Shown piece after piece: positions 1-24,773 of a DNA stretch of 64,000 nucleotides (its first letter is position 1; the number at the start of each line of letters is the position of its first letter). The stretch comes from a virus. The notes beneath the pieces were generated by a model. The model was not told the DNA's origin and ran no database searches. It saw only the letters and a program-made list of their open reading frames with translations. The translations under genes were made by a program, and so were the position numbers. The stretch is from the IMG/VR virus record IMGVR_UViG_3300047409_000171, positions 6,156 to 70,155 of that record; one strand, written 5' to 3'.

Positions 1-168
1 ATCAAGGCAAAGTTGGAGAAGCGACGAACCGAACTTGAGGGCTTCATAGTAGCCGGTGAAGTCGCAGACTGGCCAGATTACCAACGCCGCGTTGGCGTTC
101 TTCAGGGAATCGATGAGGCGTTGCGCGTGTGCGACGATCTCGAGAAGGAGGCAGAGACGAGACGATGA
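1..168 (+). CDS. 3' part of small conserved phage protein (partial)
   Basis: Open frame from base 1 (IKAKLEKRR...GIDEALRVCDDLEKEAETRR*); stop overlaps the next ATG (ATGA). Confidence 0.7.
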   Translation: MKAKLEKRRTELEGFIVAGEVADWPDYQRRVGVLQGIDEALRVCDDLEKEAETRR

Positions 169-611
169 GAGTAAATTTACGGCAGCTCGCTGAAGCGGCT
201 GCACATAATCCTGCCGAGCCACTGCTGGCTGCCGCGGGAGATTTGAGCGACTATGAGATATTTCACAATCTCGTGCTAGTCGCGACGTATGTTGCGCCGC
301 CCCGAATGATGAAGGGGCCGAACGGCGAACCTATTCCGTTCCACACGTCGGACAACACGATGGCGGAAGACCGCTTTCAGGGCAAAGTCGGCCTTGTTCT
401 AAAGGTCGGCCCTACCGCATTCCATGACGATACCGTGGCCAAGTTTGGCGGAGTATCGGTCCAGCCCAGCGATTGGGTGGTCTACCGCCCCTCCGATGGT
501 CATGAGCTATTCATCCGCGACCGCCGAAAGCTCAACGAAGGCCTATCCTGTCGGTTGATTGAGGACGTATTCATTCGCGGGCGGGTGAAAGACCCGTCGC
601 TGGTTTATTGA
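165..611 (+). CDS. groES: GroES/Cpn10-like co-chaperonin
   Basis: GKVGLVLKVGP...VQPSDWVVY...RLIED pattern of phage GroES-like proteins; ATGA coupling at 165. Confidence 0.75.
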   Translation: MRVNLRQLAEAAAHNPAEPLLAAAGDLSDYEIFHNLVLVATYVAPPRMMKGPNGEPIPFHTSDNTMAEDRFQGKVGLVLKVGPTAFHDDTVAKFGGVSVQPSDWVVYRPSDGHELFIRDRRKLNEGLSCRLIEDVFIRGRVKDPSLVY

Positions 612-618
612 GGGCATC

Positions 619-924
619 ATGCGGATATTTCAGCATTCACAAGGCTATCTGGTAGCGTTTGGCTTTGACATGGTTAGCCGGAAGCCAATGCCGCGCCGTA
701 TTTGTTGGAGCGACCCAAGCGGCGATTGGGACATGAGAACCGACAATCATGCTGGTTGGTGTGATTTGTCGTTCACCGTCAATCCGGAATTCATCCGCGA
801 GAATGCTGGTCGGATAGTTGCCTACCAGCCCGGGAAATGCGTCGAGATGACGCTGGTTGACGGCCCATTCATCTGGAATTTCACGACGCTGCAAAGCGAC
901 ACCACTCTCGCAGCTGTCGCATAG
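619..924 (+). CDS. Small protein resembling a fragment of the nozzle/stabilisation protein (30825-32882)
   Basis: LVAFG...PRRICWSD...TDNHAG aligns with LFAWG...PMMIRWSD...TTNQAG. Confidence 0.7.
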   Translation: MRIFQHSQGYLVAFGFDMVSRKPMPRRICWSDPSGDWDMRTDNHAGWCDLSFTVNPEFIRENAGRIVAYQPGKCVEMTLVDGPFIWNFTTLQSDTTLAAVA

Positions 925-936
925 GGGGGTAACATC

Positions 937-1923
937 ATGGCTGACGAGGCAGAACTCGAAATCAAGATCATCCCGGATGAGGAAGCAAACGTCGAAGCCG
1001 CGCAGGCGGCGGACGAGAAGGTTACGAAAAAGGCCGAAATCACAACTGAGGTCAAAGACCCTGCAATGCAGGAACTCATGGCCCAGTACAAAGACCTTGA
1101 GGGCCGGGAGGCTGAGAAGGATCGCCGCCTTGCGGAAGCGGAGCGGGAGAAAGAACGCCTCCGCGTCGAGGCCGAAGGTGCGAAGAAGCAAGTTGCCAAC
1201 AGCCATCTCGACACCGTCACCACGGCGCTGAATTCGGCCAAGTCGGATGCGGAGCAGGCCAAGCGGGACATCCGGGTCGCCAAGGACGCTGGCGATATCG
1301 ATGCCGAGATCGAGGCGCAGGACCGGCTGGCACAGGCGAGGGCCGACGAGCGGCGGCTCGACGAGGCCAGAAGCGACCTTGAGGCGCGTGCCAAGGCCCC
1401 GCCGAAGCGTCAGGCGCCGCCCACCGATCCAGTGGAGGCTTACGTGCAAGGCCGCACAGCGCCGACGGCTAGCTGGCTGAGGGCCCATCCGGAGTTCATC
1501 ACGGATACGCGCAAGCAGGCCAAACTTACCGCAGCGCACTATGATGCGGAGGGGGACGGGTTGGTCGCGGACACGCCGGCGTATTTTGCCCATGTTGAGA
1601 AATTTCTGGGGATAGGTGGGGAGGCGGTTACCAAGGCCGCCCCGACTGAGGCCGCGCAAGTCGAGCCGGCCAAACAACGAAAGGGGGCACCGGTGGCACC
1701 AGGGAGCGCGGTATCGAATAACGGAGCCGGCAGCGGCGCTACGCCGGTCATGCTGACCCGAGGGGAGGCCGCCGCGGCACAGGACGGTACCCACGTATGG
1801 AACTACGATGATCCGAAAGGCAAGTTCAAGAAAAACGACCCGATCGGCATTCAGGAGTTTGCCCGCCGCAAGGTCGCGATGCAAAAGCAGGGCCTGTACG
1901 ATAAATCGTACTCGGAAGTGTGA
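937..1923 (+). CDS. Putative capsid scaffolding protein
   Basis: Acidic N-terminus, long coiled coil, basic C-terminal helix, position in head module. Confidence 0.65.
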   Translation: MADEAELEIKIIPDEEANVEAAQAADEKVTKKAEITTEVKDPAMQELMAQYKDLEGREAEKDRRLAEAEREKERLRVEAEGAKKQVANSHLDTVTTALNSAKSDAEQAKRDIRVAKDAGDIDAEIEAQDRLAQARADERRLDEARSDLEARAKAPPKRQAPPTDPVEAYVQGRTAPTASWLRAHPEFITDTRKQAKLTAAHYDAEGDGLVADTPAYFAHVEKFLGIGGEAVTKAAPTEAAQVEPAKQRKGAPVAPGSAVSNNGAGSGATPVMLTRGEAAAAQDGTHVWNYDDPKGKFKKNDPIGIQEFARRKVAMQKQGLYDKSYSEV

Positions 1924-2501
1924 TCATGGCTAAACCTCTAGTCCATCTGGACCCCTACGAAATCCCGGCGCACCTGATCCCGCCGGGGATTATCTATCAG
2001 TGGGTAGCCAAGAAGTCCGGCAGCCGGATTGATCCTCAGTATCAGGCTATGGTTGAGGCCGGATGGGGCGAAGTGCCATACCAGCGGCTTGAGGACCACT
2101 ATCGCGGGCGTTATCGCGGCGAAGGGACTGAAATTCAGATCGGCGGCGAAGTTCTTATGGAACGGGCCAAAGAGATGTCGGTGGTGGCGCGTGACAAGGA
2201 AATTGACAAGGCGCTAGTAAATGCAGGTACAGGGCGTACTGCGTCGGTCAATCTTGTGCAGCATGTGAGATTGTCGGCATCGGAGCTCAACACGGCGGCA
2301 TCCATCAAGCTAAGTAGCCCGGAATACGTCGCGCGCAGGATGAAGATGATCGCAGAAGGTGCGGATGACTCACTCATTCGCGGCTGGAAAGGCTCGTTCA
2401 TGTTTATCCGGCCGCCGACAAAGCGAGTGGTGCGGCATCGTTGGCTTGGCTGGCTGTTCAATTTGATCTCCAAGGAAACAACGGAGCATTTCGATGACTG
2501 A
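1920..2501 (+). CDS. Paralogue of 2494-3192 fused to an RHH-like C-terminal domain
   Basis: IPPG..YQW...GW..VP...GEVLMER shared with 2494-3192 and 7815-8513. Confidence 0.7.
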   Translation: MIMAKPLVHLDPYEIPAHLIPPGIIYQWVAKKSGSRIDPQYQAMVEAGWGEVPYQRLEDHYRGRYRGEGTEIQIGGEVLMERAKEMSVVARDKEIDKALVNAGTGRTASVNLVQHVRLSASELNTAASIKLSSPEYVARRMKMIAEGADDSLIRGWKGSFMFIRPPTKRVVRHRWLGWLFNLISKETTEHFDD

Positions 2502-3192
2502 AGAAATCCAGAAGGTAGACCGCCGCACGCGCGAGTACCGCCAGCAGAAGGCAGCGCAGGCGGCTCCGCCCGTCCCCCCGGCTGATGTCCGGATGGATAT
2601 TGACGGCGGCGAACCCGCCCCTGCGGCATCGCCCACCCGCACACAGACCCGCGTATCGGCCCGGACCACGCCGGATGGTCGCTTGGAGGTCACCGGCCGC
2701 AACGGCGAGGTGCTGTCGCGCACCCGGACGTATGTTGGCGACATCTTCGAGATACCGAAAGAACTGATGGAGCCAGGTTGGAGCCTTCAGTGGAACGCCG
2801 TGAGCATCGCGGGCAATTCTGACATCATCCTCGACCAGAATCACATGATGCACCAGAACGGCTGGCGGCCCGTGCCGGCCGAGCGGTTTGCCGGCAAGCT
2901 GGTGCCGAAGGGCTCGACCGGGCCGATCATCCGTGGGCAGCAGATGCTGATGGAACGTCCGCAGTCGATGACGGATGAGGCAAATCGAGAGGATCAGAAA
3001 AACGCGCGAGAGCTCATATCGGCGCGTAATGAATCCTTGAAACTTACCAAGGTAAGGGATCAGTTGCCCGACGGCATGGAAATGGCTGGCAAATACATAG
3101 GCACGGGCGGCGGGATGCGCCTCTCGATAGACAAGAGCCTTGACGTTCTTGCCGTTAATCGGGAAGCTGGAAACTACAAACTGGATGAATAA
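2494..3192 (+). CDS. Conserved head-module protein
   Basis: PGWSLQW...NGWRPVP...MLMERP; follows the scaffold gene. Confidence 0.7.
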   Translation: MTEEIQKVDRRTREYRQQKAAQAAPPVPPADVRMDIDGGEPAPAASPTRTQTRVSARTTPDGRLEVTGRNGEVLSRTRTYVGDIFEIPKELMEPGWSLQWNAVSIAGNSDIILDQNHMMHQNGWRPVPAERFAGKLVPKGSTGPIIRGQQMLMERPQSMTDEANREDQKNARELISARNESLKLTKVRDQLPDGMEMAGKYIGTGGGMRLSIDKSLDVLAVNREAGNYKLDE

Positions 3193-3252
3193 GGCGAGGC
3201 CCGTCTGCGTAAACAGGCGGACCTCTAACCACAACCGAATGAGGGTTCGGAA

Positions 3253-3939
3253 ATGGCTACCGATAAAGTTATATCCCGAAAGGATGCGATGCAAAGGGGG
3301 CTTCGCCTGTACTTCACTGGCAAGCCATGCAAGCGAGGCCATGTCGCACATAGGGACGTTCCTGGTCGCGGGTGTGTGGTTTGCTCAGCGGAGCGAGCGG
3401 CATCTGACGCCGCAAAGAAAAGAAGCAAAGAATACAACTCCCGACCAGATATTAAAGAGGCAAGAAAGCGGTACAACAAGAAGTACCATGCTGAGCGAGT
3501 TTGGACGGAAGAACATCGCGTTAAAGCATTGGCAGCGACCAATAAATGGCGAAAAAACAATTTAGAAAAGGCTCGTGAGTTAGACCGCCAGTATGCGGCG
3601 AAGCGCGCGGATCAGCGTAGGGCCTACAATCGAGAGTATGCCAAGAGGAATGCAGAAAAACTCGCCACCAAAGAAAGAAATAAGCGAGCAATAAAACTTC
3701 GCAACGGCGGGCGGCATACTAAGGAAGATATAGCAGAAATCCTTCTTATGCAGCGCGGCAAGTGTGCTTATTGTCGTGTCAAACTCGGCAAAAAATATCA
3801 CGTCGACCACATCATCCCATCTGTCAAAGGTGGCAGTAATGGTCGAGAGAACCTTCAAATTCTCTGCGCCTTGTGTAACCACAAGAAACACGCGCGAGAC
3901 CCCGTTGAGTTTGCGCAGTCATTGGGATTTCTGCTATGA
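3253..3939 (+). CDS. HNH homing endonuclease
   Basis: C-terminal CAYC...HVDHIIP...GGSN..ENLQILCALCNHKK; N-terminal YFTGKPCKRGH domain. Confidence 0.9.
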   Translation: MATDKVISRKDAMQRGLRLYFTGKPCKRGHVAHRDVPGRGCVVCSAERAASDAAKKRSKEYNSRPDIKEARKRYNKKYHAERVWTEEHRVKALAATNKWRKNNLEKARELDRQYAAKRADQRRAYNREYAKRNAEKLATKERNKRAIKLRNGGRHTKEDIAEILLMQRGKCAYCRVKLGKKYHVDHIIPSVKGGSNGRENLQILCALCNHKKHARDPVEFAQSLGFLL

Positions 3940-4865
3940 GATTAGTCGTAAGTTTAGCAACGAGAGGCAGACCGGATCGCCTCGTCGACACTATAACCAA
4001 ATCGTATGCGAACTGGACCGATCCCAACACGGTGATGCAGGTTCAATTGGATGCGGATGATCCTACGCTGGATGAAGCGAAGGCAAAATTGAATGACCTC
4101 CCTTGCGTTCTGGATAATCGAGTTCTTCTCAACGTCCAAGAGCGAGAAACAACAATTGCAGCCAAGTGGAACCGGGCTCTTGACGTACCCGGCGACGTCT
4201 ACCTTGTCGCAGCCGATGACGATCCCTATTGCAGTCCGGGATACGACACCAAGATCATAGAGGCCGCCAAGCGGTTCCCTGACGGCATCGGCATGGTTTA
4301 CGGCCACCTCGCCAACCTGTCGTTCTCCGGTGCCGTAGCCCCCACCAGCAAGTTCTGCGAGCTGATGGGCGGCAAGATATTCCCCGAGTATTTCCCATAC
4401 TGGTTTGTCGACCACTGGACCGACGACGTTGCGCGAATCATTGGCCGGCTGTCGTTTGCTGCGGTCAAGACGGACCAATCGCGCCCGGGTGTGACGCAGG
4501 AGATGCGGGAGCCTGGGTGGTGGGCTACGTGGTTTGACGCGGCTTACTTGATGCGGCGCAAGCAGGCGCATGATATCATCAACAGTCCCGATTTTGTGGA
4601 CGAGTCATGGCACAAGCAGTTACTGCTGACTCACCATCCGCTGATCGAAGTCCGTTCGCGCATGATCAACCAGAACGTCCGCCAGCAGAACGCGCAGCTA
4701 TCGCAGTGGGCGGGCAATTTGAAGCCTGACGAGCGGTACAACCGGATTAAGCAGCGGGCGATTGATATGGTGCCGTCGTTGCTGAACGACTACGGGATGC
4801 CTGCGCAAGAGCAGGATATGTTCGCCCGCGCGCTGTTGGGCAAGACGCTGGAGAGGGCGGCATGA
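3936..4865 (+). CDS. Glycosyltransferase (GT-A fold, GT2-like)
   Basis: LATRGRP, QLDADD, AAKWN, YLVAADDD (DxD), FPYWFVDHW. Confidence 0.8.
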   Translation: MRLVVSLATRGRPDRLVDTITKSYANWTDPNTVMQVQLDADDPTLDEAKAKLNDLPCVLDNRVLLNVQERETTIAAKWNRALDVPGDVYLVAADDDPYCSPGYDTKIIEAAKRFPDGIGMVYGHLANLSFSGAVAPTSKFCELMGGKIFPEYFPYWFVDHWTDDVARIIGRLSFAAVKTDQSRPGVTQEMREPGWWATWFDAAYLMRRKQAHDIINSPDFVDESWHKQLLLTHHPLIEVRSRMINQNVRQQNAQLSQWAGNLKPDERYNRIKQRAIDMVPSLLNDYGMPAQEQDMFARALLGKTLERAA

Positions 4866-5305
4866 GGAAAGAGCTTCCAACCAAGCTAGAAGACGGCCGC
4901 GTTACTTACGGCCCACTAGCCAGCCGCAAATCAGATGGCGCGTATGGTGGGTTTTTTGTTCAAGGACCATGCGGCGCAAGACTCAAAATCATTGCAAGCG
5001 GCGGCGATCCTGATGATATCGAATCTCAGGGTTGGGAGCATGTTTCAGTCTCGACCGAGAGACGGCCGCCGAACTGGCAGGAAATGTGTTTCGTTAAAGA
5101 CCTATTTTGGTCTGAGGATGAGTGCGCTATCCAATATCATCCACCCAAATCAGAATACGTGAACAATCATCCTTACTGCCTGCATTTGTGGAGCAGGAGA
5201 GACGGAACGATTCCTATGCCGCCATCGATCCTAGTTGGCGTAAAAAGCCGTGGAGTTCTTTCTGAGGCGGAAGCCAAATATTTGCGCCAGCAAATGGGAC
5301 TATGA
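4862..5305 (+). CDS. Conserved phage hypothetical protein
   Basis: GWEHVSVS...PNWQEMCFVKDLFW...YVNNHPYCLHLW motif seen in many phages. Confidence 0.75.
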   Translation: MRKELPTKLEDGRVTYGPLASRKSDGAYGGFFVQGPCGARLKIIASGGDPDDIESQGWEHVSVSTERRPPNWQEMCFVKDLFWSEDECAIQYHPPKSEYVNNHPYCLHLWSRRDGTIPMPPSILVGVKSRGVLSEAEAKYLRQQMGL

Positions 5306-6717
5306 TGGACGCGGTTACAGCAGCGGCAGTGCAGGTCCAATGGGATGGAAAGCCAAAAACCATTGTGCTGTGCCATGGGTGCTGGGACTTGTGCCACCTC
5401 GGGCACATCCGCCATTTGCAGGAAGCCAAAGCGCTTGGCGGGGCGAATGCCTACCTGATCGTATCGGTCACGGCGGACAAGTGGGTCAACAAGGGCGTAG
5501 GCCGTCCGCACTTCAGCCATGAGCAGCGGGCGGAAGCATTGCGAGCTCTGGAGTGCGTGGACGAGGTGTTTATCAATCACGACGAGGGATGCTGGGAACT
5601 AATCCGCAAGATCAAGCCCGCGTTCTACGTCAAGGGTGTGGACTACGTCGGGGTATCGACTGAGGGCTTGGAGAAAGAGCGGCAGGCCATAGTTGAGGTC
5701 GGCGGCGAACTCCGGTTCACGCATTCAAGGAAGTGGTCATCCTCGCAGTTGCTCAACACGGAGCGGTTCTCCGACGAGATTTGCGCCTACCTGGAGACGA
5801 TGAAGGCTGCGGACGCCAAGGGCCGGATATTTGAGGCCTTCGATAAGGCGGACAAGAAGCAAATCCTGTTCGTTGGCGAGCAGATCGAGGATGTGTATCG
5901 GTACGTCCAAGGGCTCGGCCGAGCGTCGAAGGAGTTGATGCTGGCGACGGTCGAGACCGGCCACGAGACGTTCTCTGGCGGAATTACAGCGTCCCAACTA
6001 CATGGCGAGTGGCGCAACACCAACGTCGTGACGGGCTCATATCCAATCACCAAGACGCGCTACGTCGATTCGGACTTCAACAAGAAGCTGTTTGATGTCT
6101 ATTCGGCGCGCGAGATCAGCATGACGGCATGGGAGAGGGCCGAGTTTAGGGACCGCTTGACGGATGCTATTGGCCTCCATGACGTTGTGATCGTGAACGA
6201 TTTCGGCCACGGTTTGATCGGGGATATTGAGCGGAACGCCTTGCAGAACACGGGGTTTTTGGCGGTGAACTGCCAGACCAACGCTGGCAATTACGGGTTC
6301 AATCTCATCACCAAGTACCCGAAAGCGCACTATGTCTGCATTGACGACCCAGAGGCGCGGCTGGCGGCCGGGATGCAGCGGGAGCCCATCTCGAGCGTGG
6401 CGTTCTCGCTATCGCAGCGGATGGCCTGCAAGCGGTTCCTGATCACCCATGGCCGGTACGGGTCGGACTGGTTCCACCAGAACTCGTCATTCCAGGTTGG
6501 CCGCGCGCCAGCGCTGGCTCAAGGCGGGGTGGATACGATGGGCGCGGGGGATGCAGTGATGGCCGTTACCGCGCCATTGGTCGCCGCGGGGCTCGACATG
6601 CAGTCCGTGGCGCTGGTTGGCAACATCGTGGGGGCGATCAAAGTGTCAATCCTTGGCCACCGTCGGCACGTTGGGCGGCAGGAGATTATTCAGACGGTGG
6701 AGGCCCTACTCGCATGA
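5302..6717 (+). CDS. Bifunctional nucleotidyltransferase / PfkB sugar kinase (HldE/RfaE-like, domains in reversed order)
   Basis: N-terminal HGCWDLCHLGH (HxGH) and YVKG.DY; C-terminal DFGHG and DTMGAGDA PfkB signature. Confidence 0.9.
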   Translation: MMDAVTAAAVQVQWDGKPKTIVLCHGCWDLCHLGHIRHLQEAKALGGANAYLIVSVTADKWVNKGVGRPHFSHEQRAEALRALECVDEVFINHDEGCWELIRKIKPAFYVKGVDYVGVSTEGLEKERQAIVEVGGELRFTHSRKWSSSQLLNTERFSDEICAYLETMKAADAKGRIFEAFDKADKKQILFVGEQIEDVYRYVQGLGRASKELMLATVETGHETFSGGITASQLHGEWRNTNVVTGSYPITKTRYVDSDFNKKLFDVYSAREISMTAWERAEFRDRLTDAIGLHDVVIVNDFGHGLIGDIERNALQNTGFLAVNCQTNAGNYGFNLITKYPKAHYVCIDDPEARLAAGMQREPISSVAFSLSQRMACKRFLITHGRYGSDWFHQNSSFQVGRAPALAQGGVDTMGAGDAVMAVTAPLVAAGLDMQSVALVGNIVGAIKVSILGHRRHVGRQEIIQTVEALLA

Positions 6718-6905
6718 CAGATTTGACGGAAGAATCTCTATCGGAACTGATGAAAGCTATTCGTGCCGAGTGGGTGATTAAGCCCATTCAATTGGTAGTC
6801 ACGCAAGAAGGTATAGCGCGGATGCGCGCACTCTGCGCTGACGACCCAGAATTTAAGAAGCGAGTAATCGCAGAATTTCCGCAGGTGGAGGCGTTGCTGG
6901 CATGA
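6714..6905 (+). CDS. 63-aa protein resembling a fragment of the major capsid protein
   Basis: DLTEESLSELMKAIRAEWV..QLVV vs capsid SLNESTLLANMTNVRTQFV..RLVV; ATGA coupling at both ends. Confidence 0.65.
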   Translation: MTDLTEESLSELMKAIRAEWVIKPIQLVVTQEGIARMRALCADDPEFKKRVIAEFPQVEALLA

Positions 6906-7252
6906 GCCTATCATCCGCCTATTCAGGCATGAGTGCGGTCGCGAGCGAGTTTCAGGTGGCCATAGATTCGATTAAGGATAGGGCTCCGGAGCGTTTCGTG
7001 GATGCCGTCATCTGGCAAGACTTCGTCCATGATAGGGTGTCCATCCGGACAGAATTCGTATTAGTAACGCGGCGCGACATGGATGATGCGCGTAATTCTC
7101 GGCATCTAAATTCGCTAGTCGCCGCCCGTGTACTCAAGGCTATCGGCATCTCCGATGACCCATCTCAACAGGCAAAGCGTCTCCGTACGGAGCGCAGGCA
7201 GTTGCTGGCGAGGGGCAAGGAAGCGGCATCACGGAAGGCGCGACTGGCATGA
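6902..7252 (+). CDS. Hypothetical protein (weak capsid-like motifs)
   Basis: ATGA-coupled ORF; WQDFVHD and VTRRDMDD. Confidence 0.6.
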   Translation: MSLSSAYSGMSAVASEFQVAIDSIKDRAPERFVDAVIWQDFVHDRVSIRTEFVLVTRRDMDDARNSRHLNSLVAARVLKAIGISDDPSQQAKRLRTERRQLLARGKEAASRKARLA

Positions 7253-7818
7253 ATGCGAGGTTCAAATTGGCGGAAATATCATGCCGCTACGAGGCTCTGA
7301 CCAATGGCTTGGCCGATATCCGCTCCGAGCCCAACGCCTACCAGACCGTAATCGACATGATCACCCACATGGGCAACGGCAAGGCGCGGCTGTTCTTCGT
7401 GGGCAACGGTGGGTCGGCGGCGGTCGCTTCGCATTGCGCAATTGACTACATGAAGGCAGGCGGGTTCGCCACGTTCGGACCTGGGGACGCTGCGCAGATG
7501 ACGTGCATCGGGAATGATCTCGGGTTCCATAACGTGTACTCGCTGCCGATTGAACGGCATGGGCAATTGGGCGACGTGCTGTTTGCTATTTCTAGTTCAG
7601 GGATGAGCGAGGACATTCTAGACGCGGTGGCGACTGCTAGGCGCAAGATGATGAACGTAGTCACCCTCAGTGGTTTCGGAGAGGGCAATTTCCTTCGCAA
7701 GAAGGGGCAGGTTAACTTCTACGTGCCGTCGAATCGGTATGGCGTCGTGGAAATAGCGCATCTGGCCATCCTGCATTCGATACTGGACGAAGTGGTTGAA
7801 TTGGAGAGGCAAAAATGA
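7249..7818 (+). CDS. gmhA: SIS-domain phosphosugar isomerase (GmhA-like)
   Basis: GNGGSAAVASH, TCIGND, GDVLFAISSSG.S, YGVVEIAH. Confidence 0.9.
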   Translation: MNARFKLAEISCRYEALTNGLADIRSEPNAYQTVIDMITHMGNGKARLFFVGNGGSAAVASHCAIDYMKAGGFATFGPGDAAQMTCIGNDLGFHNVYSLPIERHGQLGDVLFAISSSGMSEDILDAVATARRKMMNVVTLSGFGEGNFLRKKGQVNFYVPSNRYGVVEIAHLAILHSILDEVVELERQK

Positions 7819-8513
7819 AACGCACCAAGAAAGCCAAGCCGTTCGTCTTTAAGGCCAAGCCACTCACGCGGGCGCAGAAGGCAAAACGAACCAGAGACCG
7901 CAATGAGTTGACGAAGCGAATGCGGGCAATGGACCCCTTCTATGTCCATCCCGATACTGTTCCGGCCGGCAAGGCCTACCAATGGTTTTCGTTGGAAATA
8001 CTTGGTGCCTCAAACGAGGACGCTATTGACCGCGCCAAGGACGACGGATGGAAGGATGTTCCATTTTCTCGACATGACTTTGGCCGTAGATGCAACGCAA
8101 AGGGCAGGATTGTCGTTGATAATTCCGTTCTCATGGAGAACAGCGCCGAGATCGTGGCTGGTGCCCTAAAGAAGGACCAAGCCGCCGCGCGGCAGATGAT
8201 TGCCGACAACCCCATAGGGGCTTCAAAACAGGAGGGGCACCCTTTCCCGATTGTGAGCGAAAGTTTTGTCATATCTTCTTTCTATGAGACAGTACCGCGT
8301 GATGCCGCACCAGTGGTTGTCCCAGTGACAATATCGGTTCGGATGGATGCTGGATGGCAGGACGCTGCTGTTGGCCTTGGTCTATCCAATGAGGAATACG
8401 CGCGCCGCCGCCTGCTGATGACGATGCCAATTCTTGCTGGAGAACCAGCCGGCGACAATGATGCAGTATATGAACCTGTTACATTGCGCGTCGAGCTGGA
8501 GCGGAAGAAATGA
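7815..8513 (+). CDS. Second paralogue of 2494-3192 with RHH-like C-terminus
   Basis: VPAGKAYQW...GWKDVP...SVLME; VRMD...AA.GLGLSNEEYARRR. Confidence 0.7.
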   Translation: MKRTKKAKPFVFKAKPLTRAQKAKRTRDRNELTKRMRAMDPFYVHPDTVPAGKAYQWFSLEILGASNEDAIDRAKDDGWKDVPFSRHDFGRRCNAKGRIVVDNSVLMENSAEIVAGALKKDQAAARQMIADNPIGASKQEGHPFPIVSESFVISSFYETVPRDAAPVVVPVTISVRMDAGWQDAAVGLGLSNEEYARRRLLMTMPILAGEPAGDNDAVYEPVTLRVELERKK

Positions 8514-8698
8514 CGAAAGAGTTTCTCGTCAAAAAGAAGGATTCCAGAGAAGCCGCATTTGAGGCGGTTCAAGCTGAACTGGCGGTATATCTTTTGGGGA
8601 ACGACAATCCGTCGTGGAAATATCTGATCAAGCCGGAAGCATTGTACGGCAAGGGCGGCTGGCGGGCCTACGCTCGCATTGAATGGAATAAGAAATGA
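8510..8698 (+). CDS. Hypothetical protein
   Basis: ATGA-coupled 62-aa ORF. Confidence 0.55.
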   Translation: MTKEFLVKKKDSREAAFEAVQAELAVYLLGNDNPSWKYLIKPEALYGKGGWRAYARIEWNKK

Positions 8699-9276
8699 CT
8701 GCAGAGGAATTGCTGGCATTCGAGGCCGACATCGCCGCCGAATTCGAGGCCGCGAAGATCGCCGCGCCCGTGCACCTCGCTGGCGGGAATGAGCAGGCTT
8801 TGATTGAACTGTTCAAGGACATCAAAGACGAGGATTATATTTGCTGCGGCTGGCGTTCTCATTACCACGCGCTGCTCAAGGGAGTCCCTCCGGAAGTTCT
8901 CAAAGCCTCGATCATGGAAGGTCGGTCGATTGCCCTCTGCTTCCCATCGCATCGGATGATCAGTTCGGCCATCGTTGGCGGCATCTGCCCGATTGCGCTA
9001 GGCATCGCATGGACATTGAAGCGCCAAGGAAAGCCCGGCAAAGTGTGGGTGTTTTTGGGGGACATGACCTGTTCAACCGGGATTTTCACCGAGACCATGC
9101 GCTATGCGATGGGCCACGACTTGCCGATCCAGTTCATCATGGAGGACAACGGCATGTCGGTTTGCGCTCCGACGCGGGAGGTGTGGGGGCTGGCCGGTGC
9201 TCCGCCGCCGTTCTTTGGGTATGCGTATGAGCTTACGAGGCCGCACGTTGGAATTAACAAGTGGATTTCGTTCTGA
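8695..9276 (+). CDS. TPP-dependent enzyme, E1 alpha-like subunit (short)
   Basis: HLAGGNE, WRSHYHALLKG, SAIVGG, GD...EDN TPP-binding motif. Confidence 0.85.
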   Translation: MTAEELLAFEADIAAEFEAAKIAAPVHLAGGNEQALIELFKDIKDEDYICCGWRSHYHALLKGVPPEVLKASIMEGRSIALCFPSHRMISSAIVGGICPIALGIAWTLKRQGKPGKVWVFLGDMTCSTGIFTETMRYAMGHDLPIQFIMEDNGMSVCAPTREVWGLAGAPPPFFGYAYELTRPHVGINKWISF

Positions 9277-10259
9277 TGGGTAAGCCCCTCGCGATTGACC
9301 TTTTCTGCGGCCTCGGCGGCTGGACTGACGGCCTGTTAGCCGAAGGCTACGACGTGATCGGTTTCGACATTGAGCGGCATCAGTACGGCGAGCACCGCTA
9401 TCCCGGCTCGCTGGTCATTCAGGACGTTTGCACGTTGCACGGATCGCAGTTCAAAGATGCCACGCTGATCGTCGCCTCCCCGCCCTGCCAGGAATACAGC
9501 TACATGGCGATGCCATGGAAGCGTGCGAAAGCCAAAGCTGCAGCGATTCGGGCCGACGAAACCGGCAAGATGCTGGCGGACCTAAACCGCCTATTCGATG
9601 CCTGTTTTCGCATCCAGAAAGAGGCGAGCATCGCGGCTGGCCGGCATATCCCGTGCGTGGTTGAGAACGTGCGCGGGGCAATCCCGTGGGTTGGCCGGAG
9701 CCGTTGGAATTTCGGCAGTTTTCACCTCTGGGGCGACGTGCCGGCGCTGATGCCGATGACAGCCAAGGCGATCAAAGTACCAACAATGGGCGCGGGCTGG
9801 TATCCGCCAGGCCATCCGAAACACGTCCCCGGGTTAGGCTTCAACACGCATGCTGAGCGCAACATGCGTGAGGACATCAAGAACGTGGGCGGCTCATGGT
9901 TTGCTGTGGCGCACAACACGACAAGCGGGAAGGGGCAAAATCCGGATGGGCGTAAACTGCCCGGCTTCCGCTTCGACGGCTCTGGAAAGACTTTCCAGAG
10001 CGCGAGCGTTGCGGCGACCGGAACGAAGGTTCCGAGCGGCCTGGGTCGGCGCACCGACCCAGGCAAGGGCGCACGCTTTACCTCGCGCGACTGCGGGATA
10101 GAGGGCACCAAGAACGGAAACGACTGGTTTGGGTCCGGCGAAAACTGTTCGCTGCAACGTAAGCACGGTTCCAAGTCGGGCGGTCGCAAGATGGCATCCG
10201 CCCTGATCGCCAAGATTCCGCTCCCTCTCAGCCGGCATATCGCGGTGACCTTCCGATGA
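9276..10259 (+). CDS. C5 cytosine DNA methyltransferase-like protein with C-terminal repeats
   Basis: DLFCGLGG (motif I), SPPCQ (IV), VENV (VI); start placed at the TGATG overlap. Confidence 0.8.
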   Translation: MGKPLAIDLFCGLGGWTDGLLAEGYDVIGFDIERHQYGEHRYPGSLVIQDVCTLHGSQFKDATLIVASPPCQEYSYMAMPWKRAKAKAAAIRADETGKMLADLNRLFDACFRIQKEASIAAGRHIPCVVENVRGAIPWVGRSRWNFGSFHLWGDVPALMPMTAKAIKVPTMGAGWYPPGHPKHVPGLGFNTHAERNMREDIKNVGGSWFAVAHNTTSGKGQNPDGRKLPGFRFDGSGKTFQSASVAATGTKVPSGLGRRTDPGKGARFTSRDCGIEGTKNGNDWFGSGENCSLQRKHGSKSGGRKMASALIAKIPLPLSRHIAVTFR

Positions 10260-10792
10260 CATACCATGACGAACTTGCCATAGCGATGAACCTTCTCGCC
10301 GATGACGAGAGGACAATCTTCCTTGGTCAGGGAGTCGCATGTGGCGGTACCTCAATGGCGTCGACGCTTAAAGATATTCCGATGGCGAAGCGCATTGAAA
10401 TGCCGGTCGCCGAAGAAATGCAGACAGGCATGGCGGTTGGGATGTCACTGCGGGGGCTGATCCCCATATCGATCATACCACGCTGGAACTTCATGCTTCG
10501 CGCCGCCGATGCCATCGTCAATCACCTCGACCGCCTATCGCTATATTCGGACTACCGCCCCAAGGTCATCATCCGCACCGCCGTCCCCAGCAAGTCCCCG
10601 TTCAATCCGGGCCCCCAGCACGACGACGACTTCACCGGCGCATTCCGTGCTATGCTGCGCACAACCGACGTCGTCTGCCTGCAGTCCGAGGAAGATATCG
10701 TCCCGCAGTACCAGAAGGCGCTGCACTCGCCGCGGAGTACAATCATTGTGGAATTCACTGATTTTTACCGGAATGCGAGGGGCAATGGCTGA
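10256..10792 (+). CDS. TPP-dependent enzyme, E1 beta/transketolase pyrimidine-binding subunit (short)
   Basis: IFLGQGV, IEMPVAEEMQTGMAVG, PRWNF, GPQH. Confidence 0.85.
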   Translation: MTYHDELAIAMNLLADDERTIFLGQGVACGGTSMASTLKDIPMAKRIEMPVAEEMQTGMAVGMSLRGLIPISIIPRWNFMLRAADAIVNHLDRLSLYSDYRPKVIIRTAVPSKSPFNPGPQHDDDFTGAFRAMLRTTDVVCLQSEEDIVPQYQKALHSPRSTIIVEFTDFYRNARGNG

Positions 10793-12161: not shown

Positions 12162-12797
12162 ATGAGCGGACCAAAAGGCCCATGGGATAAAACTTGCTAT
12201 CAATGCAAGGAAACAAAACCAACAGACCAATTCGCAAAACGCAGCAGCAAGTCCCTGCGTCTGTACCGCAATATCTGCACCGACTGCTGGAACGCTTATT
12301 ATCGTAAATTGAGAGACACCGATGAGCGTCGTGCTAAGGACGCTGCCAAAATGAGGGAGTGGCGCGGTAACCCAGAGAATAAAGAGAAAGAAAGAAAAAG
12401 GCGCCATGCCGCCAATGCGGCTAGCCCTGCCACTGTTTTTAGAATGGCGATTCACAACGCCAGAATGAGAGCTCCCATTGAGATTACACGAGATGACTTG
12501 TGGAGGTTATGGGAAGCGCAACATGGCAAGTGTGCATTAACTGGCATTGCTATGACGTGGGCAAAAGGCAAAATTCAACCTACGTCCATTTCTCTGGATC
12601 GTATTGATTCATCGCTCAATTATACTGTCGACAATGTTCGCTTCATTTGTCATGCGGTTAATGCCTTCAAGGGCGTTGGTAGTGATGATGAAATGCTCGT
12701 CATGGCCCGCGCCATCGTCGCGAAGGCCGACGAATCCGAACCTTCATGGCGCGGCTTCGGCTACAGCGCCAACGACCATATCCTGATGGTGCATTGA
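12162..12797 (+). CDS. HNH-like homing endonuclease
   Basis: N-terminal CxxC...CxxC; GKCALTG, SLDRIDS..YTVDNVRFIC.AVN..K. Confidence 0.8.
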   Translation: MSGPKGPWDKTCYQCKETKPTDQFAKRSSKSLRLYRNICTDCWNAYYRKLRDTDERRAKDAAKMREWRGNPENKEKERKRRHAANAASPATVFRMAIHNARMRAPIEITRDDLWRLWEAQHGKCALTGIAMTWAKGKIQPTSISLDRIDSSLNYTVDNVRFICHAVNAFKGVGSDDEMLVMARAIVAKADESEPSWRGFGYSANDHILMVH

Positions 12798-13476: not shown

Positions 13477-13662
13477 GTGGACGAATACGTCAAAGCCAAT
13501 AATTACGGTGCATGGGCCATTGGCCAGCCGCTTAAAAATGGACGATTCCAAGTGCGTCGGGTAGTATGGGGAACCATAATGGCGCGGTCCGAAAAGCGCG
13601 AAGGCGAACAAATCCGTCGCGCCGAAATCAACGTCAGAAAGCCGATAAAGCAATCCAAATGA
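13477..13662 (+). CDS. Hypothetical protein (start uncertain)
   Basis: Fills the gap; stop overlaps the next ATG. Confidence 0.45.
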   Translation: MDEYVKANNYGAWAIGQPLKNGRFQVRRVVWGTIMARSEKREGEQIRRAEINVRKPIKQSK

Positions 13663-14174
13663 AGCCACGCGAAGCATCACTCAGCCACGAAACCCTAACG
13701 CGGGTGCTGGACTACGATCCAGCAACCGGGGTTTTCGTGTGGAAAGAGCGCACGTCAAATCGGGTCAAGGTAGGTGCGGCGGCTGGCAACGTAACTCCCT
13801 TCGGATACATGTCGATCCAATTATTGGGATGGGCCTACCTCGCGCACCGCCTGGCATGGTTTTACGTTCATGGTGTCTGGCCTAAAGAGGAAGTAGACCA
13901 TCGTGATGGTGATGGGATTAACAACAAACTCTCGAATTTGAGAGAGGCTAACAGCTCACAGAATAAAATGAACCGAAGGCCACGGCCAGAGACCAAGGTT
14001 GGTCTTAAGGGAGTTTATCTCCACAAAGAAAATCCGCCTCAGTATAGGGCTCGGATTAAGTCGGCCGATGGGAAAGTGCATCACTTGGGTTTGTTCCCAA
14101 CGGCTGAAGAAGCTCACGCTGCATACGCTGCGGCATCACATAAGTATCATGGCGAATATGGGAGAAGTACTTGA
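13659..14174 (+). CDS. HNH endonuclease with AP2-like C-terminal domain
   Basis: YDPATGVFVW, AHRLAW, VDHRDGD..NN..SNLREA..SQN, HLG.F.TAEEA. Confidence 0.9.
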   Translation: MKPREASLSHETLTRVLDYDPATGVFVWKERTSNRVKVGAAAGNVTPFGYMSIQLLGWAYLAHRLAWFYVHGVWPKEEVDHRDGDGINNKLSNLREANSSQNKMNRRPRPETKVGLKGVYLHKENPPQYRARIKSADGKVHHLGLFPTAEEAHAAYAAASHKYHGEYGRST

Positions 14175-18525: not shown

Positions 18526-18599
18526 GGACCACAAGCATTAAGGTGATGCACCGGCCTCTTAACCCGGGGAACACGGATCGTTACCGTGGTGGTCCACCA
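18526..18599 (+). tRNA. tRNA-Lys(CTT)
   Basis: GGACCAC/GTGGTCC-A-CCA; loop CTCTTAA. Confidence 0.85.
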
Positions 18600-18606
18600 T
18601 TTCTAT

Positions 18607-18680
18607 GCGGCTATAGTTCAAAGGCAGATCGCCCGGTTGTCAACCGGAGGACGGGGGATCGATACCCCCTAGCCGCGCCA
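18607..18680 (+). tRNA. tRNA-Asp(GTC)
   Basis: GCGGCTA/TAGCCGC-G-CCA; loop TTGTCAA. Confidence 0.9.
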
Positions 18681-18681
18681 T

Positions 18682-18757
18682 CTCTGCGAAGCTCGTGCAG
18701 GAAGAGCACCCGCCTTGGAAGCGGGAGGTCGGTGGTCGGAGCACCGCGTGGAGACCA
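18682..18757 (+). tRNA. tRNA-Pro(TGG)
   Basis: CTCTGCG/CGTGGAG-A-CCA; CCCGC-CTTGGAA-GCGGG. Confidence 0.85.
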
Positions 18758-18761
18758 ATTC

Positions 18762-18837
18762 GGGCGTTGAGCCAGATGGGACGGCCGGCTGCTCATAACA
18801 GTCAGAGGACGGGGTTCGATTCCCCGACGGTCCACCA
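18762..18837 (+). tRNA. tRNA with CAT anticodon (Ile2 or Met), imperfect acceptor stem
   Basis: GGCTG-CTCATAA-CAGTC; canonical T arm; CCA. Confidence 0.75.
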
Positions 18838-18842
18838 TTTAT

Positions 18843-18918
18843 TCCCGTAGAGCCATCTAGGTGAGGGCGGCCGGCTGTTAACCGGCGAAGGCGCGTTCGA
18901 ATCGTGCTGCGGGAGCCA
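18843..18918 (+). tRNA. tRNA-Asn(GTT)
   Basis: TCCCGTA/TGCGGGA-G-CCA; GCCGG-CTGTTAA-CCGGC. Confidence 0.9.
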
Positions 18919-18922
18919 ACAC

Positions 18923-18996
18923 GCTGCTATCGTCTAATGGAAGGATGCTGGTCCCTCAAACCGGCGGTGCGGGGTCAGAACCCGCTAGCAGCTCCA
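18923..18996 (+). tRNA. tRNA-Glu(CTC), atypical (C33, U73)
   Basis: GCTGCTA/TAGCAGC-T-CCA; CTGGT-CCCTCAA-ACCGG. Confidence 0.7.
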
Positions 18997-18997
18997 T

Positions 18998-19076
18998 ACT
19001 CGCGTAACCGGCCGTGATTACGAATCACAGGAACCGTAACTGGAGCATGGGAGTTCGACTCTCCCCGCGAGTGCCA
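18998..19076 (+). tRNA. tRNA-Arg(ACG)-like, no D-arm, enlarged variable region
   Basis: ACTCGCG/CGCGAGT-G-CCA; GTGA-TTACGAA-TCAC; canonical T arm. Confidence 0.7.
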
Positions 19077-19083
19077 TTTTCAT

Positions 19084-19160
19084 CTGCGTGTAGCTCAGTC
19101 AGGTAGAGTACACCCCTCGGAAGGGTGGGGCCGCAGGATCGAAGCCTGCCACGCAGACCA
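19084..19160 (+). tRNA. tRNA-Pro(CGG)
   Basis: CTGCGTG/CACGCAG-A-CCA; CACCC-CTCGGAA-GGGTG. Confidence 0.9.
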
Positions 19161-19163
19161 TTT

Positions 19164-19233
19164 TGCGGAGACCAAGGCGGTAAGTCCGGCTCTGAACCGG
19201 ATGAAGTGGGATCGTGCCCTACCTCCGCAGCCA
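19164..19233 (+). tRNA. tRNA-Gln(CTG), short D-arm
   Basis: TGCGGAG/CTCCGCA-G-CCA; TCCGG-CTCTGAA-CCGGA. Confidence 0.8.
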
Positions 19234-19237
19234 ACAC

Positions 19238-19312
19238 GGCGCATTGTCAGAGCGGTCATGTGCTCGCCTGCAAAGCGATGCTAGGGGTGTTCGACTCACC
19301 CATGCGCCTCCA
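19238..19312 (+). tRNA. tRNA-Cys(GCA)
   Basis: GGCGCAT/ATGCGCC-T-CCA; loop CTGCAAA. Confidence 0.9.
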
Positions 19313-19313
19313 C

Positions 19314-19395
19314 ACCCCGGTAGCCGGAGCGATCTTCTAAATCGTCACCCGTAGCGGAGCTGAAATCGCGTGTTCGAATCACGCTCGGGGTGCCA
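19314..19395 (+). tRNA. tRNA-Arg(TCT)-like, no D-arm, enlarged variable region
   Basis: ACCCCGG/TCGGGGT-G-CCA; GCGAT-CTTCTAA-ATCGT; canonical T arm. Confidence 0.7.
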
Positions 19396-19396
19396 T

Positions 19397-19473
19397 CTTG
19401 CCGTCGCCCAACTGGAGAGGGCCTCCGTCTCCTAAACGGATGTGTCGGTGTTCGAGTCACCGCGGCAAGGCCA
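19397..19473 (+). tRNA. tRNA-Arg(CCT)
   Basis: CTTGCCG/CGGCAAG-G-CCA; TCCGT-CTCCTAA-ACGGA. Confidence 0.9.
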
Positions 19474-19478
19474 ATTCT

Positions 19479-19567
19479 GGTGAACTAAGCGGGTGGGACC
19501 CGTCCTCGTTTGCTAAACGAAGGGCACCTCAAAAAGGTGTGAGAATCGTGCTCTCAGTTCACCGCCA
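19479..19567 (+). tRNA. tRNA-Ser(GCT)
   Basis: GGTGAAC/GTTCACC-G-CCA; loop TTGCTAA; long variable arm CACCT/AGGTG. Confidence 0.85.
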
Positions 19568-19571
19568 ATCT

Positions 19572-19646
19572 GCAGGTATGGGTCATTGGTTGATCGTCAG
19601 CCTTCCAAGCTGTTCCAAGGGAGTTCGATTCTCCCTGCCTGCTCCA
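19572..19646 (+). tRNA. tRNA-Gly(TCC)
   Basis: GCAGGTA/TGCCTGC-T-CCA; loop CTTCCAA. Confidence 0.9.
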
Positions 19647-19647
19647 C

Positions 19648-19722
19648 GGAGCCTTCGTCTACTGGCTAGGATCACGGTTTTTCACACCGTAGGAACGGGA
19701 TCGATACCCGTAGGCTCTACCA
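19648..19722 (+). tRNA. tRNA-Glu(TTC)
   Basis: GGAGCCT/AGGCTCT-A-CCA; ACGGT-TTTTCAC-ACCGT. Confidence 0.9.
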
Positions 19723-19727
19723 ATTAT

Positions 19728-19801
19728 GGCCGGTTCGTTTAGTGACAGGACGCGAGGCTTTGAATCTCGCTGCGGTGGTTTGATTCCATCACCGGCTGCC
19801 A
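19728..19801 (+). tRNA. tRNA-Gln(TTG)
   Basis: GGCCGGT/ACCGGCT-G-CCA; loop CTTTGAA. Confidence 0.85.
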
Positions 19802-19802
19802 A

Positions 19803-19873
19803 CCCGATGCCTCCGGCGAGGACGCAGCCCTCATAAGGCTGCCAGCCCTGATCGACACAGGGCTTCGGGACCA
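19803..19873 (+). tRNA. tRNA-Met(CAT)-like, short D-arm
   Basis: CCCGATG/CTTCGGG-A-CCA; CAGCC-CTCATAA-GGCTG. Confidence 0.75.
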
Positions 19874-19884
19874 ATTATTTTTAT

Positions 19885-19962
19885 GCTGGTCATGCTCGAC
19901 GGCAATGAGCACGCCGACTGTGAATCGGTGGGACAGGGATTCGACTTCCCGGGCCAGTACCA
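19885..19962 (+). tRNA. tRNA-His(GTG), no G-1, A73
   Basis: GCTGGTC/GGCCAGT-A-CCA; GCCGA-CTGTGAA-TCGGT; preceding base is T. Confidence 0.85.
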
Positions 19963-19967
19963 AATTT

Positions 19968-20042
19968 GGGAGTGTGGTGAAGCGGTATCATGCCGGTCTC
20001 CAAAACCGTGCGTCTCGGGTTCAAATCCTGACACTCTCGCCA
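19968..20042 (+). tRNA. tRNA-Trp(CCA)
   Basis: GGGAGTG/CACTCTC-G-CCA; loop CTCCAAA. Confidence 0.9.
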
Positions 20043-21544: not shown

Positions 21545-22459
21545 TTGCCCGTAAGTCTCGCAAACATTCGCTCAGAGTTGCTTCCTGGGTTGTTCGACGT
21601 TCGCGGTAGCTATGATATGATACCGCGCCAATTTGACAAAGTTTTCAAAACCCACAAGTCATCCATGGCTGTCGAGCGATCGACCCAGATGGCGTTCGTG
21701 GCGCTGCCGTACCTCAAGGATGAGGGCGCCGCGACTCAGTTCGACAACAACGCTGGCGAGCGGTTCACCTGGGCCTTCGTGCATATCGAAGTGGCTCTTG
21801 GCTACGCGATCACCCGCAAGGCCATCGATGACAACCTCTACAAGGCGCAGTTCAACCCGACCAACCTGAAACTCCAGGAGGCGTTCGCGCAGTTCAAGGA
21901 AATTCAGGCGGCGAACATCTTCAACACTGGTACCACATACAACGCGCAGCAGGTTGGCGACGGCGTTGCGTTTTTCTCGACGTCCCATCCGTATGACGGC
22001 GGCACGTGGGCGAATACCTCATCGACGCCGAAGTCGCTGAACGAATCGACGCTGCTGGCGAACATGACCAACGTCCGCACCCAGTTCGTCAACGAGCGCG
22101 GTATGCGTATCCTGTCTCGCGCGCGTCGGCTGGTCGTTCCGCCGAACCTCGAGGCCATCGCCATCCGCCTGACCAAGACAGAGCTCCGACCAGGCACGGC
22201 GGACAACGACGTCAACGCGATCCTGTCGCTATCTGGCGGATTGCCGGAAGGCTTCATCGTTCTGGACTTCCTGACCTCGAACTTCGCGTGGTTCCTGACC
22301 ACGAATATCGAGGGGCTCATCCACATGCTGAGAATACCATATGAGTCTGATATGTGGGTGGACAACGTCACAGATAATTTACTTGTGAAATCCTATGAAA
22401 GATATTCATTCGGTATCAACGACCCCCGTTGTGCTTGGGGCGAATATCCGACGGCCTGA
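21545..22459 (+). CDS. Major capsid protein (Mu gpT-like HK97 fold)
   Basis: LLPGL, ALGYAITRKAIDDNLY, GDGVAFFS.SHP, ERYSFG.NDPR; GGAGG plus TTG start. Confidence 0.9.
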   Translation: MPVSLANIRSELLPGLFDVRGSYDMIPRQFDKVFKTHKSSMAVERSTQMAFVALPYLKDEGAATQFDNNAGERFTWAFVHIEVALGYAITRKAIDDNLYKAQFNPTNLKLQEAFAQFKEIQAANIFNTGTTYNAQQVGDGVAFFSTSHPYDGGTWANTSSTPKSLNESTLLANMTNVRTQFVNERGMRILSRARRLVVPPNLEAIAIRLTKTELRPGTADNDVNAILSLSGGLPEGFIVLDFLTSNFAWFLTTNIEGLIHMLRIPYESDMWVDNVTDNLLVKSYERYSFGINDPRCAWGEYPTA

Positions 22460-24209: not shown

Positions 24210-24773
24210 ATGGCTGAAATACTCGTATGCTATGAGGGACCTATTGTCACGCGTGCAGAGGCCAAGAAAGAAGGCAAGAAAAGATACTTTCGCGGGGTCG
24301 CTTGTAAGTATGGCCACATATCTCAAACTTTTCTTAGTGGGGGATGTTGTTATTGCCAGACTCTAATGAGACGAAAGAACGATGGGGCAATAACTAAAAG
24401 AAGAGATAAATTACTCGCTGAAATAGCCGGAAGACCAAAACCAAAAATTTGCGAGGTGTGCCACAAGGCCGGAAGGCGAATCATATTTGACCATTGCCAA
24501 GCTTCTATGAAATTCAGAGGATGGTTGTGTGATGGATGCAATATGGCGATTGGTTTGCTCCATGAATCTCCTCAAAGACTAAGAGCCTTGGCTCTGTACT
24601 TAGAAAAGAACGCACCAAGTTTGGACTACGAAGAGCCTAAATTCAGGGTAACCAATAGAGGACTGATAACTCCAAAAGGAATGTGGAGTGCCGAAACTGA
24701 ACGCAAAGCAGAGGAAGGCGCTTCCCGCAACGGTTTTCGCCGAGCCGAAGGCCAGAAAATATCCTCTGCCTGA
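24210..24773 (+). CDS. Endonuclease VII-like homing endonuclease
   Basis: CEVC...FDHC...FRGWLCDGCN.AIG; N-terminal domain shared with 3253-3939. Confidence 0.85.
   Translation: MAEILVCYEGPIVTRAEAKKEGKKRYFRGVACKYGHISQTFLSGGCCYCQTLMRRKNDGAITKRRDKLLAEIAGRPKPKICEVCHKAGRRIIFDHCQASMKFRGWLCDGCNMAIGLLHESPQRLRALALYLEKNAPSLDYEEPKFRVTNRGLITPKGMWSAETERKAEEGASRNGFRRAEGQKISSA

Follow-up and report, generated by a model that had tools for sequence, protein, structure and literature searches.

What does a short gene that resembles part of the tail nozzle do among the head genes of a virus, 30 kb away from the nozzle gene itself? The question arises in a 64,000-nucleotide stretch of DNA (the window), which covers bases 6156–70155 of a 70,155-bp virus record (IMGVR_UViG_3300047409_000171) rated complete by CheckV. 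An initial annotation had described the open reading frame (ORF) at window positions 619–924 (+) as a stand-alone copy, ~100 residues long, of nozzle β-propeller blades. Both profile comparisons (hhalign, HMMER and a PDB search) and structural comparisons (AF2, Foldseek, VIA and a strand map) bear this description out. The 101-aa product is very probably a stand-alone protein homologous to two consecutive four-stranded β-propeller blades of the nozzle, corresponding to nozzle residues ~337–433.

Genomic context of the small gene

The local gene order is portal, a 246-aa ORF, a 93-aa ORF, a 148/160-aa protein, the small gene and a 328-aa protein. The portal protein (765 aa) matches phrog_1216 (E = 1.9e-5), and the small gene lies 1.8 kb downstream of the portal gene, which fits its initial placement in the head module. 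The nozzle gene follows 30 kb further downstream, in agreement with the distance originally given. The upstream neighbour, at 129–611 (+), encodes a conserved head-module protein of 160 aa counted from the first GTG, or 148 aa from the ATG at 165. Its stop codon is overlapped by a Shine–Dalgarno-like GAGGG (609–613, +), read from the sequence, which stands 5 nt ahead of the small-gene ATG. The downstream neighbour is a Glu/Ala/Lys-rich ORF of 328 aa in scaffold position (937–1923, +), starting 13 nt past the small-gene stop.

The small gene had further been placed between groES and the scaffold gene. The GroES part of this description stands only by way of a homologue: the 148/160-aa neighbour is present in eight related viral loci, and one of the eight family members matches Cpn10 in Pfam (E = 2.2e-6), but the window's own copy gave no Pfam, NCBIfam or PDB match in sequence and profile searches. 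The neighbour may thus be called Cpn10/GroES-like only indirectly. The 328-aa protein belongs to no Pfam or NCBIfam family and has only a weak PHROG match, to a PHROG of unknown function. Its orthologues occupy the same position in related loci, and 'scaffold' is a putative label.

On the antisense strand, a 415-aa ORF (637–1884, −) faces both the small gene and the gene in scaffold position; it is a putative gene only. Four HNH/endonuclease VII-like ORFs lie within the structural-gene region (3253–3939, 12162–12797, 13566–14174 and 24210–24773); scattered between structural genes, they account in part for the large distance between portal and nozzle. A cluster of 14 tRNA genes (18526–20042, +) separates the accessory-gene region from the capsid genes. 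The ORFs at 8695–9276 and 10256–10792 match the N and C halves of phrog_34187 (positions 7–197 and 237–403 of 405) and flank a 332-aa ORF (9261–10259) with a DNA-methyltransferase-like N-terminus; judging from these matches, a phrog_34187 gene may have been split around an inserted ORF (8695–10792). Two different ORFs match 'major head protein' PHROGs, one at 21545–22459 (phrog_371, E = 6.6e-8) and the other, located among tail and internal-protein genes, at 37458–39125 (phrog_21712, E = 1.5e-19).

Family, selection and distribution

A word-indexed search returned five close homologues of the small protein (99–103 aa, 50–75% identity). Scanning 1.84 billion representatives with HMMER extended the family to 74 clusters (50% identity) at E ≤ 1e-3, 53 of them at E ≤ 1e-10; nearly all members measure 88–140 aa, within a full range of 88–201 aa. 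The family alignment, A3, comprises 69 of 80 sequences. The other 11 (P0163, P0166, P0179, P0186–P0190, P0195, P0197 and P0199) were excluded as fragments, frame-shifted tails, carriers of long N- or C-terminal extensions and, in one case, an unrelated repeat protein. Among eight small-gene orthologues, synonymous sites are saturated (pS 0.64–0.88) while pN is 0.16–0.36, and dN/dS, where computable, is 0.10–0.30. Given the 74 clusters, the low pN against saturated pS and the Shine–Dalgarno-like site, ORF 619–924 (+) is a real gene under purifying selection.

The family is unnamed, and neither Pfam, NCBIfam nor the PHROGs contain a model dedicated to it. The window's small protein matched nothing in Pfam, the PHROGs or NCBIfam, and Pfam gave single weak matches only across the 69 family members, five of which individually match phrog_3287, the PHROG of the nozzle. 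No real match was obtained by tblastn with three family members against 50,697 deposited phage records, and blastn of window positions 1–8000 against phages gave nothing. A genome-contig scan for a prophage copy yielded only a 13-residue pattern match, and hence none at that sensitivity. Searches of an open-access literature library brought up no stand-alone nozzle-blade paralogue.

Tryptophan is conserved in the family at positions 30, 37 and 86. The window's protein terminates in a short Ala-rich helix (residues 94–100, window 904–921). Within A3, the last two residues are Ala-Ala in 13 of the 69 members, and the last residue is Ala in 22, against an overall Ala frequency of 7%; such Ala-rich C-termini resemble ssrA-like C-terminal degrons. 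Reading the N-termini by eye, we found twin-arginine-like extensions in two members: P0182, which is part of the 69-sequence alignment, and an ORF of genome G028 (L124 6371–6838, −), which is outside it. In the other members, the window's included, no signal peptide was seen.

To describe the distribution, we took the 80 best nozzle loci found in viral contigs, 78 of them distinct, and kept the 30 that lie on contigs of at least 50 kb. The stand-alone small gene occurs in three of these 30 related genomes (G002, G028 and G029) and is missing from G003, a genome rated complete, and from G005, whose rating is 91% complete. It lies within 10 kb in two of the eight loci around the 148-aa, Cpn10-like neighbour gene. 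Conversely, the nozzle family was present in all four tested records reached via small-gene or neighbour loci. Loci carrying the small gene were searched for with a 15-sequence alignment, and most of those seen place it beside or near portal or terminase genes: directly after the portal gene (L001/L012, L002/L005, L016 and L017), directly before it (G028) or upstream of the terminase gene (L013/L021 and L023). In G029 it lies among tail-fibre-like genes, and in this window it is flanked by the 148-aa gene and the gene in scaffold position. Its position thus varies, and it never adjoins the nozzle gene. The small gene is a conserved accessory phage gene, and its sporadic occurrence (3 of 30 genomes, 2 of 8 loci) implies that it is not needed for assembly.

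The nozzle and its matching segment

The protein encoded at 30825–32882 (+), 685 aa long, matches phrog_3287 (E = 1.7e-47). Its AF2 model (pLDDT 86.6, pTM 0.82) retrieves podophage hubs and nozzles at Foldseek ranks 1–31 without exception (Pa223, SU10, VP1, P22 gp10, T7 gp12 and Sf6 gp8), with the Pa223 tail hub gp59 (9nwi_Y) at E = 3.5e-23 and TMt 0.79, and 8zkk_O at 9.6e-18. Profile and predicted fold together identify it as a genuine nozzle or tail hub protein. A Gly/Tyr-rich linker between the N-terminal β domain and the propeller (residues 262–280, window 31608–31664) is the sole stretch of the model with pLDDT below 50. In some nozzle homologues, PF12195 (Pfam) covers the N-terminal part. 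Nozzles have the same length, and are matched over their whole extent, whether or not a genome carries the small gene; a full-profile match is present with it in G000, G001 and G002 and without it in G003 and G005.

Residues 337–433 of the nozzle (31833–32123, +) form the segment homologous to the small protein according to hhalign, HMMER and DSSP. In the model, this segment contains eight strands (337–341, 346–355, 360–369, 387–390, 397–403, 406–411, 415–422 and 426–433), read as two consecutive four-stranded blades.

Sequence comparison of the small protein with the nozzle

Pairwise, the resemblance is not significant. BLASTP did not recover the collinear alignment and matched the nozzle only locally, over short stretches in other places; the Smith–Waterman score against the claimed nozzle segment (35) was reached by 60 of 1,000 shuffles. 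An hhalign comparison built from only six sequences, the small protein and its five close homologues, found the same region with 0.25% probability. Using the 69 small-family sequences against 24 nozzle sequences raised the probability to 78–90% (E = 1.7e-5 to 1.6e-6), and a second, more diverse nozzle set (38 sequences) gave 89.5% (E = 2e-6). With the 24 sequences, small-protein residues 22–94 pair with nozzle residues 361–435; over both sets the aligned range is 22–96 with 361–438, and global mode aligned 96 columns. The observed hhalign score of 46.3 compares with 15.5 for the reversed query and 16.6 for the reversed target, a mean of 14.3 and maximum of 21 over 150 column shuffles, and a mean of 18.3 and maximum of 35.1 over 150 six-column block shuffles. 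An alignment no better than shuffled controls had been named as grounds for giving up the initial annotation; the pairwise alignment falls short in this way, whereas the profile alignment stands far above its shuffles. On the sequence level, similarity to the nozzle is therefore well above chance once family profiles are used.

The small-family HMM gave a concordant result. It matched 21 of the 24 nozzle sequences at E < 1e-3, at the equivalent segment every time, and in a six-frame search of the 30 related viral records it matched the nozzle ORF in 12, hitting nothing but nozzle ORFs and true stand-alone small genes. Across 177,635 distinct PDB sequences, the best match of the A3 profile was 9nwi_Y at residues 161–241 (E = 7.5e-4). 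The nozzle profile matches the same chain at 165–337, along with VP1 'nozzle gp16' chains (E ~5e-6).

Conserved positions common to the two families (small protein/nozzle) are W30/W369, A45-G46/A386-G387, G81/G422 and P83/P424, and aromatic residues occur in both at 37/378 and 86/427. Four short anchors had been proposed by eye. Three of them recur in the hhalign and HMMER alignment to the window's nozzle; the remaining one, IF..LVAFG, the first of the series, does not, and draws its support from the strand map and from the HMM alignment to another genome's nozzle. Other positions are conserved in the small family alone (P56, F58, E61, Q70-P71-G72 and E76), the nozzle carrying other invariant residues there. 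That the conserved polar residues of the second blade (P56, E61, Q70-P71-G72 and E76) lack a nozzle counterpart suggests that the small protein has a function of its own. We also looked for an internal two-fold repeat by comparing the N and C halves of the small protein, and rejected it (score 9.7, null mean 7.6, null maximum 13).

Predicted structure of the small protein

AF2, supplied with the 69-sequence alignment, models the small protein with high confidence (mean pLDDT 95.4, pTM 0.85) as a compact, self-contained two-blade domain. The predicted strands span residues 2–5, 11–17, 22–30, 46–49, 58–62, 65–70, 73–81 and 85–91, followed by a helix at 94–100. These eight strands correspond one-to-one, and in order, to the eight nozzle strands between residues 337 and 433, which indicates that the small protein amounts to two entire blades, with its ends at blade boundaries. 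The number of blades is inferred from the strand lists of the two models. Structure prediction of both proteins, which had been proposed as a check together with hhalign, thus returned propeller blades in each case.

In a Foldseek search of the PDB, the sole match at E ≤ 1e-3 was 9nwi_Y (E = 3.1e-4, TMq 0.65, r.m.s.d. 3.4 Å, 21% identity). The rows that follow are the SU10 tail and generic WD40/PROPPIN propellers, and weak rows include propeller lectins (PLL; E 0.17–0.6). VIA-align against 48,161 chains again ranked 9nwi_Y at the top (Z 11.1, 97 residues, r.m.s.d. 4.5, chain residues 145–281). The runner-up scored Z 8.2, generic propellers 8.2 or less, and other phage tails 8.0 (SU10), 7.7 (GP4), 7.6 (LME-1) and 7.1 (A4). 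All seven BFVD matches at E ≤ 1e-3 are phage proteins of 300–905 aa (TMq 0.74–0.76, 2.0–2.3 Å over 91–95 columns), with lower rows labelled 'Stabilization protein' or 'P22 Gp10'. Protein Atlas gave no usable match; its model of the small protein is poor (pLDDT 0.42). The 513-aa chain of 9nwi is the Pa223 tail hub gp59, in which the propeller is described as lying between insertion-domain segments 2–46 and 403–512 (bioRxiv 10.1101/2025.06.11.659172); by that description, the residues matched here belong to its propeller blades.

AF2 (eight strands), VIA and Foldseek agree on a four-stranded antiparallel blade fold. A closed multi-blade propeller with an adaptor-binding platform or insertion domain (~450–900 aa) is not what the 101 residues form: they hold two blades only, which makes the small protein a fragment homologue and not a nozzle protein. 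It has profile and fold homology to two consecutive blades of the podophage hubs and nozzles (Pa223 gp59, VP1 gp16, SU10, P22 gp10 and T7 gp12) and has the W, N-x-A-G and G-x-P anchor positions in common with them. Unlike these proteins, it lacks a platform, insertion domain and fibre dock, could not alone close a propeller or form a hexameric channel, carries its own second-blade motif, and is encoded, in this window, far from the tail genes.

Another podophage accessory protein of about this size is T7 gp7.3, whose gene adjoins the portal gene. It offers a functional analogue, compared here by description only: gp7.3 (99 aa) is reported to assist in seating the nozzle on the adaptor and to be basic and largely unstructured, binding DNA and, through a C-terminal loop, the nozzle (PMC11784390). 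The small protein does not have this basic, mostly disordered character, being ordered and β-rich in its model (pLDDT 95), compact and slightly acidic (net charge about −2).

Predicted homodimer

Complex prediction with three copies of the small protein and the A3 alignment gave a median ipSAE of 0.44 (0.44, 0.37 and 0.47 in the individual runs), the best of three controls scoring 0.00. Partner pLDDT was at least 78, and at least 88% of contacts were common to the runs. In calibration, which used two copies and other alignments, 20 of 30 solved pairs attained the ipSAE mark, as did 1 of 23 single chains. The confident interface involves the same residues on both copies (1–5, 11, 16, 18, 21–23, 31, 35 and 37), and for this reason suggests a two-fold dimer formed through the N-terminal strand rather than a ring. 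Interface positions are modestly more conserved than the remainder (2.34 versus 1.90 bits), a difference reached by 450 of 10,000 random sets with the start Met included. The model supports, but does not show, a symmetric homodimer through the N-terminal strand.

Two-blade subunits of ~90 aa are known from the propeller lectins RSL and BambL, which form cyclic trimers that close a six-bladed ring. The small protein resembles them in size and in blade number, and may like them need to oligomerize. It differs in that its predicted interface is isologous, with two-fold symmetry via the N-terminal strand, and in that no internal repeat is detectable.

Discussion

The small gene most likely originated as an old partial copy of a nozzle gene, cut exactly at blade boundaries. 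The best overall explanation combines this origin and the blade homology with a dimeric product that serves as a tail-assembly or virion accessory; as a whole it is tentative, and we would put it at somewhat less than an even chance. The small gene would be translated with the portal and head genes late in infection. The soluble blade dimer would then engage a partner that normally touches this part of the nozzle wedge; candidates are the adaptor, a fibre and an adjacent nozzle subunit. Its part in tail assembly or in the virion would be dispensable. The nozzle is intact, and the small protein does not complete it.

The functional part of this explanation, a dispensable accessory using nozzle-like surfaces, is our best guess, held with low confidence. 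In its favour, most loci have the gene near that for the portal or terminase, and one has it among tail genes, which suits a late or structural role. Precedents are phage A1002, in which nozzle blades come in part from a second polypeptide (PMC13730344), and T7 gp7.3. Sporadic occurrence, variable position, the family-specific polar motif in the second blade and the twin-arginine-like extensions of two members count against this role. Surface mimicry of the nozzle, one of two functions put forward in the initial annotation, is a possible candidate role.

A rather unlikely alternative is that the blades were exapted as a binding module unrelated to tail assembly, acting in host envelope or surface binding (receptor masking or superinfection exclusion) or in a lectin-like role. 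The conserved polar motif in blade 2, without nozzle counterpart, and the conserved Trp at 30, 37 and 86 would suit such a module, as would a patchy, moron-like distribution in variable slots and the propeller lectins among the weak Foldseek rows. The twin-arginine-like extensions read by eye on two members would be more in keeping with the envelope than with the virion as place of action. The Pa223 authors, moreover, propose that the hub is possibly involved in host recognition (bioRxiv 10.1101/2025.06.11.659172). Against this alternative, no ligand site is identifiable, and signal peptides were seen by eye on no members beyond P0182 and the G028 ORF, so that most members would be cytoplasmic until lysis.

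It is improbable that the small protein is an immune decoy, that is, a soluble mimic of the nozzle surface that titrates or blocks a host sensor of the nozzle fold, for instance a STAND NTPase of the Avs13 type. Podophage tail nozzle protein reportedly binds to and activates Avs13 (PMC12803255), and the small protein reproduces two nozzle blades. Its sporadic accessory distribution is typical of counter-defence genes, and the product, encoded in the same block of late genes, would be made no later than the nozzle. Yet Avs13 is described as surrounding the nozzle protein completely (PMC12803255); two blades may not bind it, or could trigger it. In addition, no known anti-Avs protein is a trigger mimic as far as 10.1101/2025.06.06.658234 shows: ORF55, a DNA ligase, and ORF83, a predicted AMP-binding protein, are not. 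We regard as a long shot the related proposal of a soluble two-blade nozzle replica that blunts Avs13-type sensors as a trigger mimic or poisons the tail assembly of co-infecting rivals.

The second function put forward initially was that the small protein occupies a blade position in the nozzle. This is unlikely, since the modelled nozzle sheets are complete over residues 337–433 and nozzle length is the same with and without the small gene. The more specific proposal of a split nozzle, in which the small protein supplies strands or blades missing from the nozzle, is very improbable. Its precedent is phage A1002, where the nozzle-rope gp39 is described as filling strands lacking in the truncated nozzle-base gp42 (PMC13730344). 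The likeness is that nozzle-type blade elements are found on another polypeptide than the main nozzle protein, and the homology of the small protein is indeed to nozzle blades. Whereas the A1002 base lacks strands, however, the nozzle modelled here has eight complete strands over 337–433 (pTM 0.82), and the small protein, as an optional additional copy, duplicates rather than replaces a segment present in the nozzle. With nozzles complete by full-profile match in the presence (G000, G001, G002) and absence (G003, G005) of the small gene, the arrangement does not amount to a split nozzle.

Finally, we consider the chance of a coincidental resemblance, a generic propeller-blade likeness or a non-coding ORF to be negligible: pairwise alignment no better than shuffles and the low six-sequence hhalign probability would favour it, but the profile score exceeds all shuffle controls, the top hit in the PDB is a phage hub and not a WD40 or Kelch protein, the hub stands 3 Z units above generic propellers in VIA, and the gene is under purifying selection.

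The blade family described here represents a clean natural case in which two blades of a closed β-propeller, cut at blade boundaries, persist as an independent, selected family. Alongside the recently described split nozzle, it adds a second route by which nozzle blades come to be carried on a separate polypeptide. It also provides a defined candidate for unassigned tail or portal-vertex density in phage structures. Should the small protein prove to be a trigger mimic or a poison for rivals, a piece of a structural protein would have become a weapon of counter-defence or competition; should it be a surface mimic of the nozzle, phage accessory factors would gain a new class, one with its origin in a virion protein.
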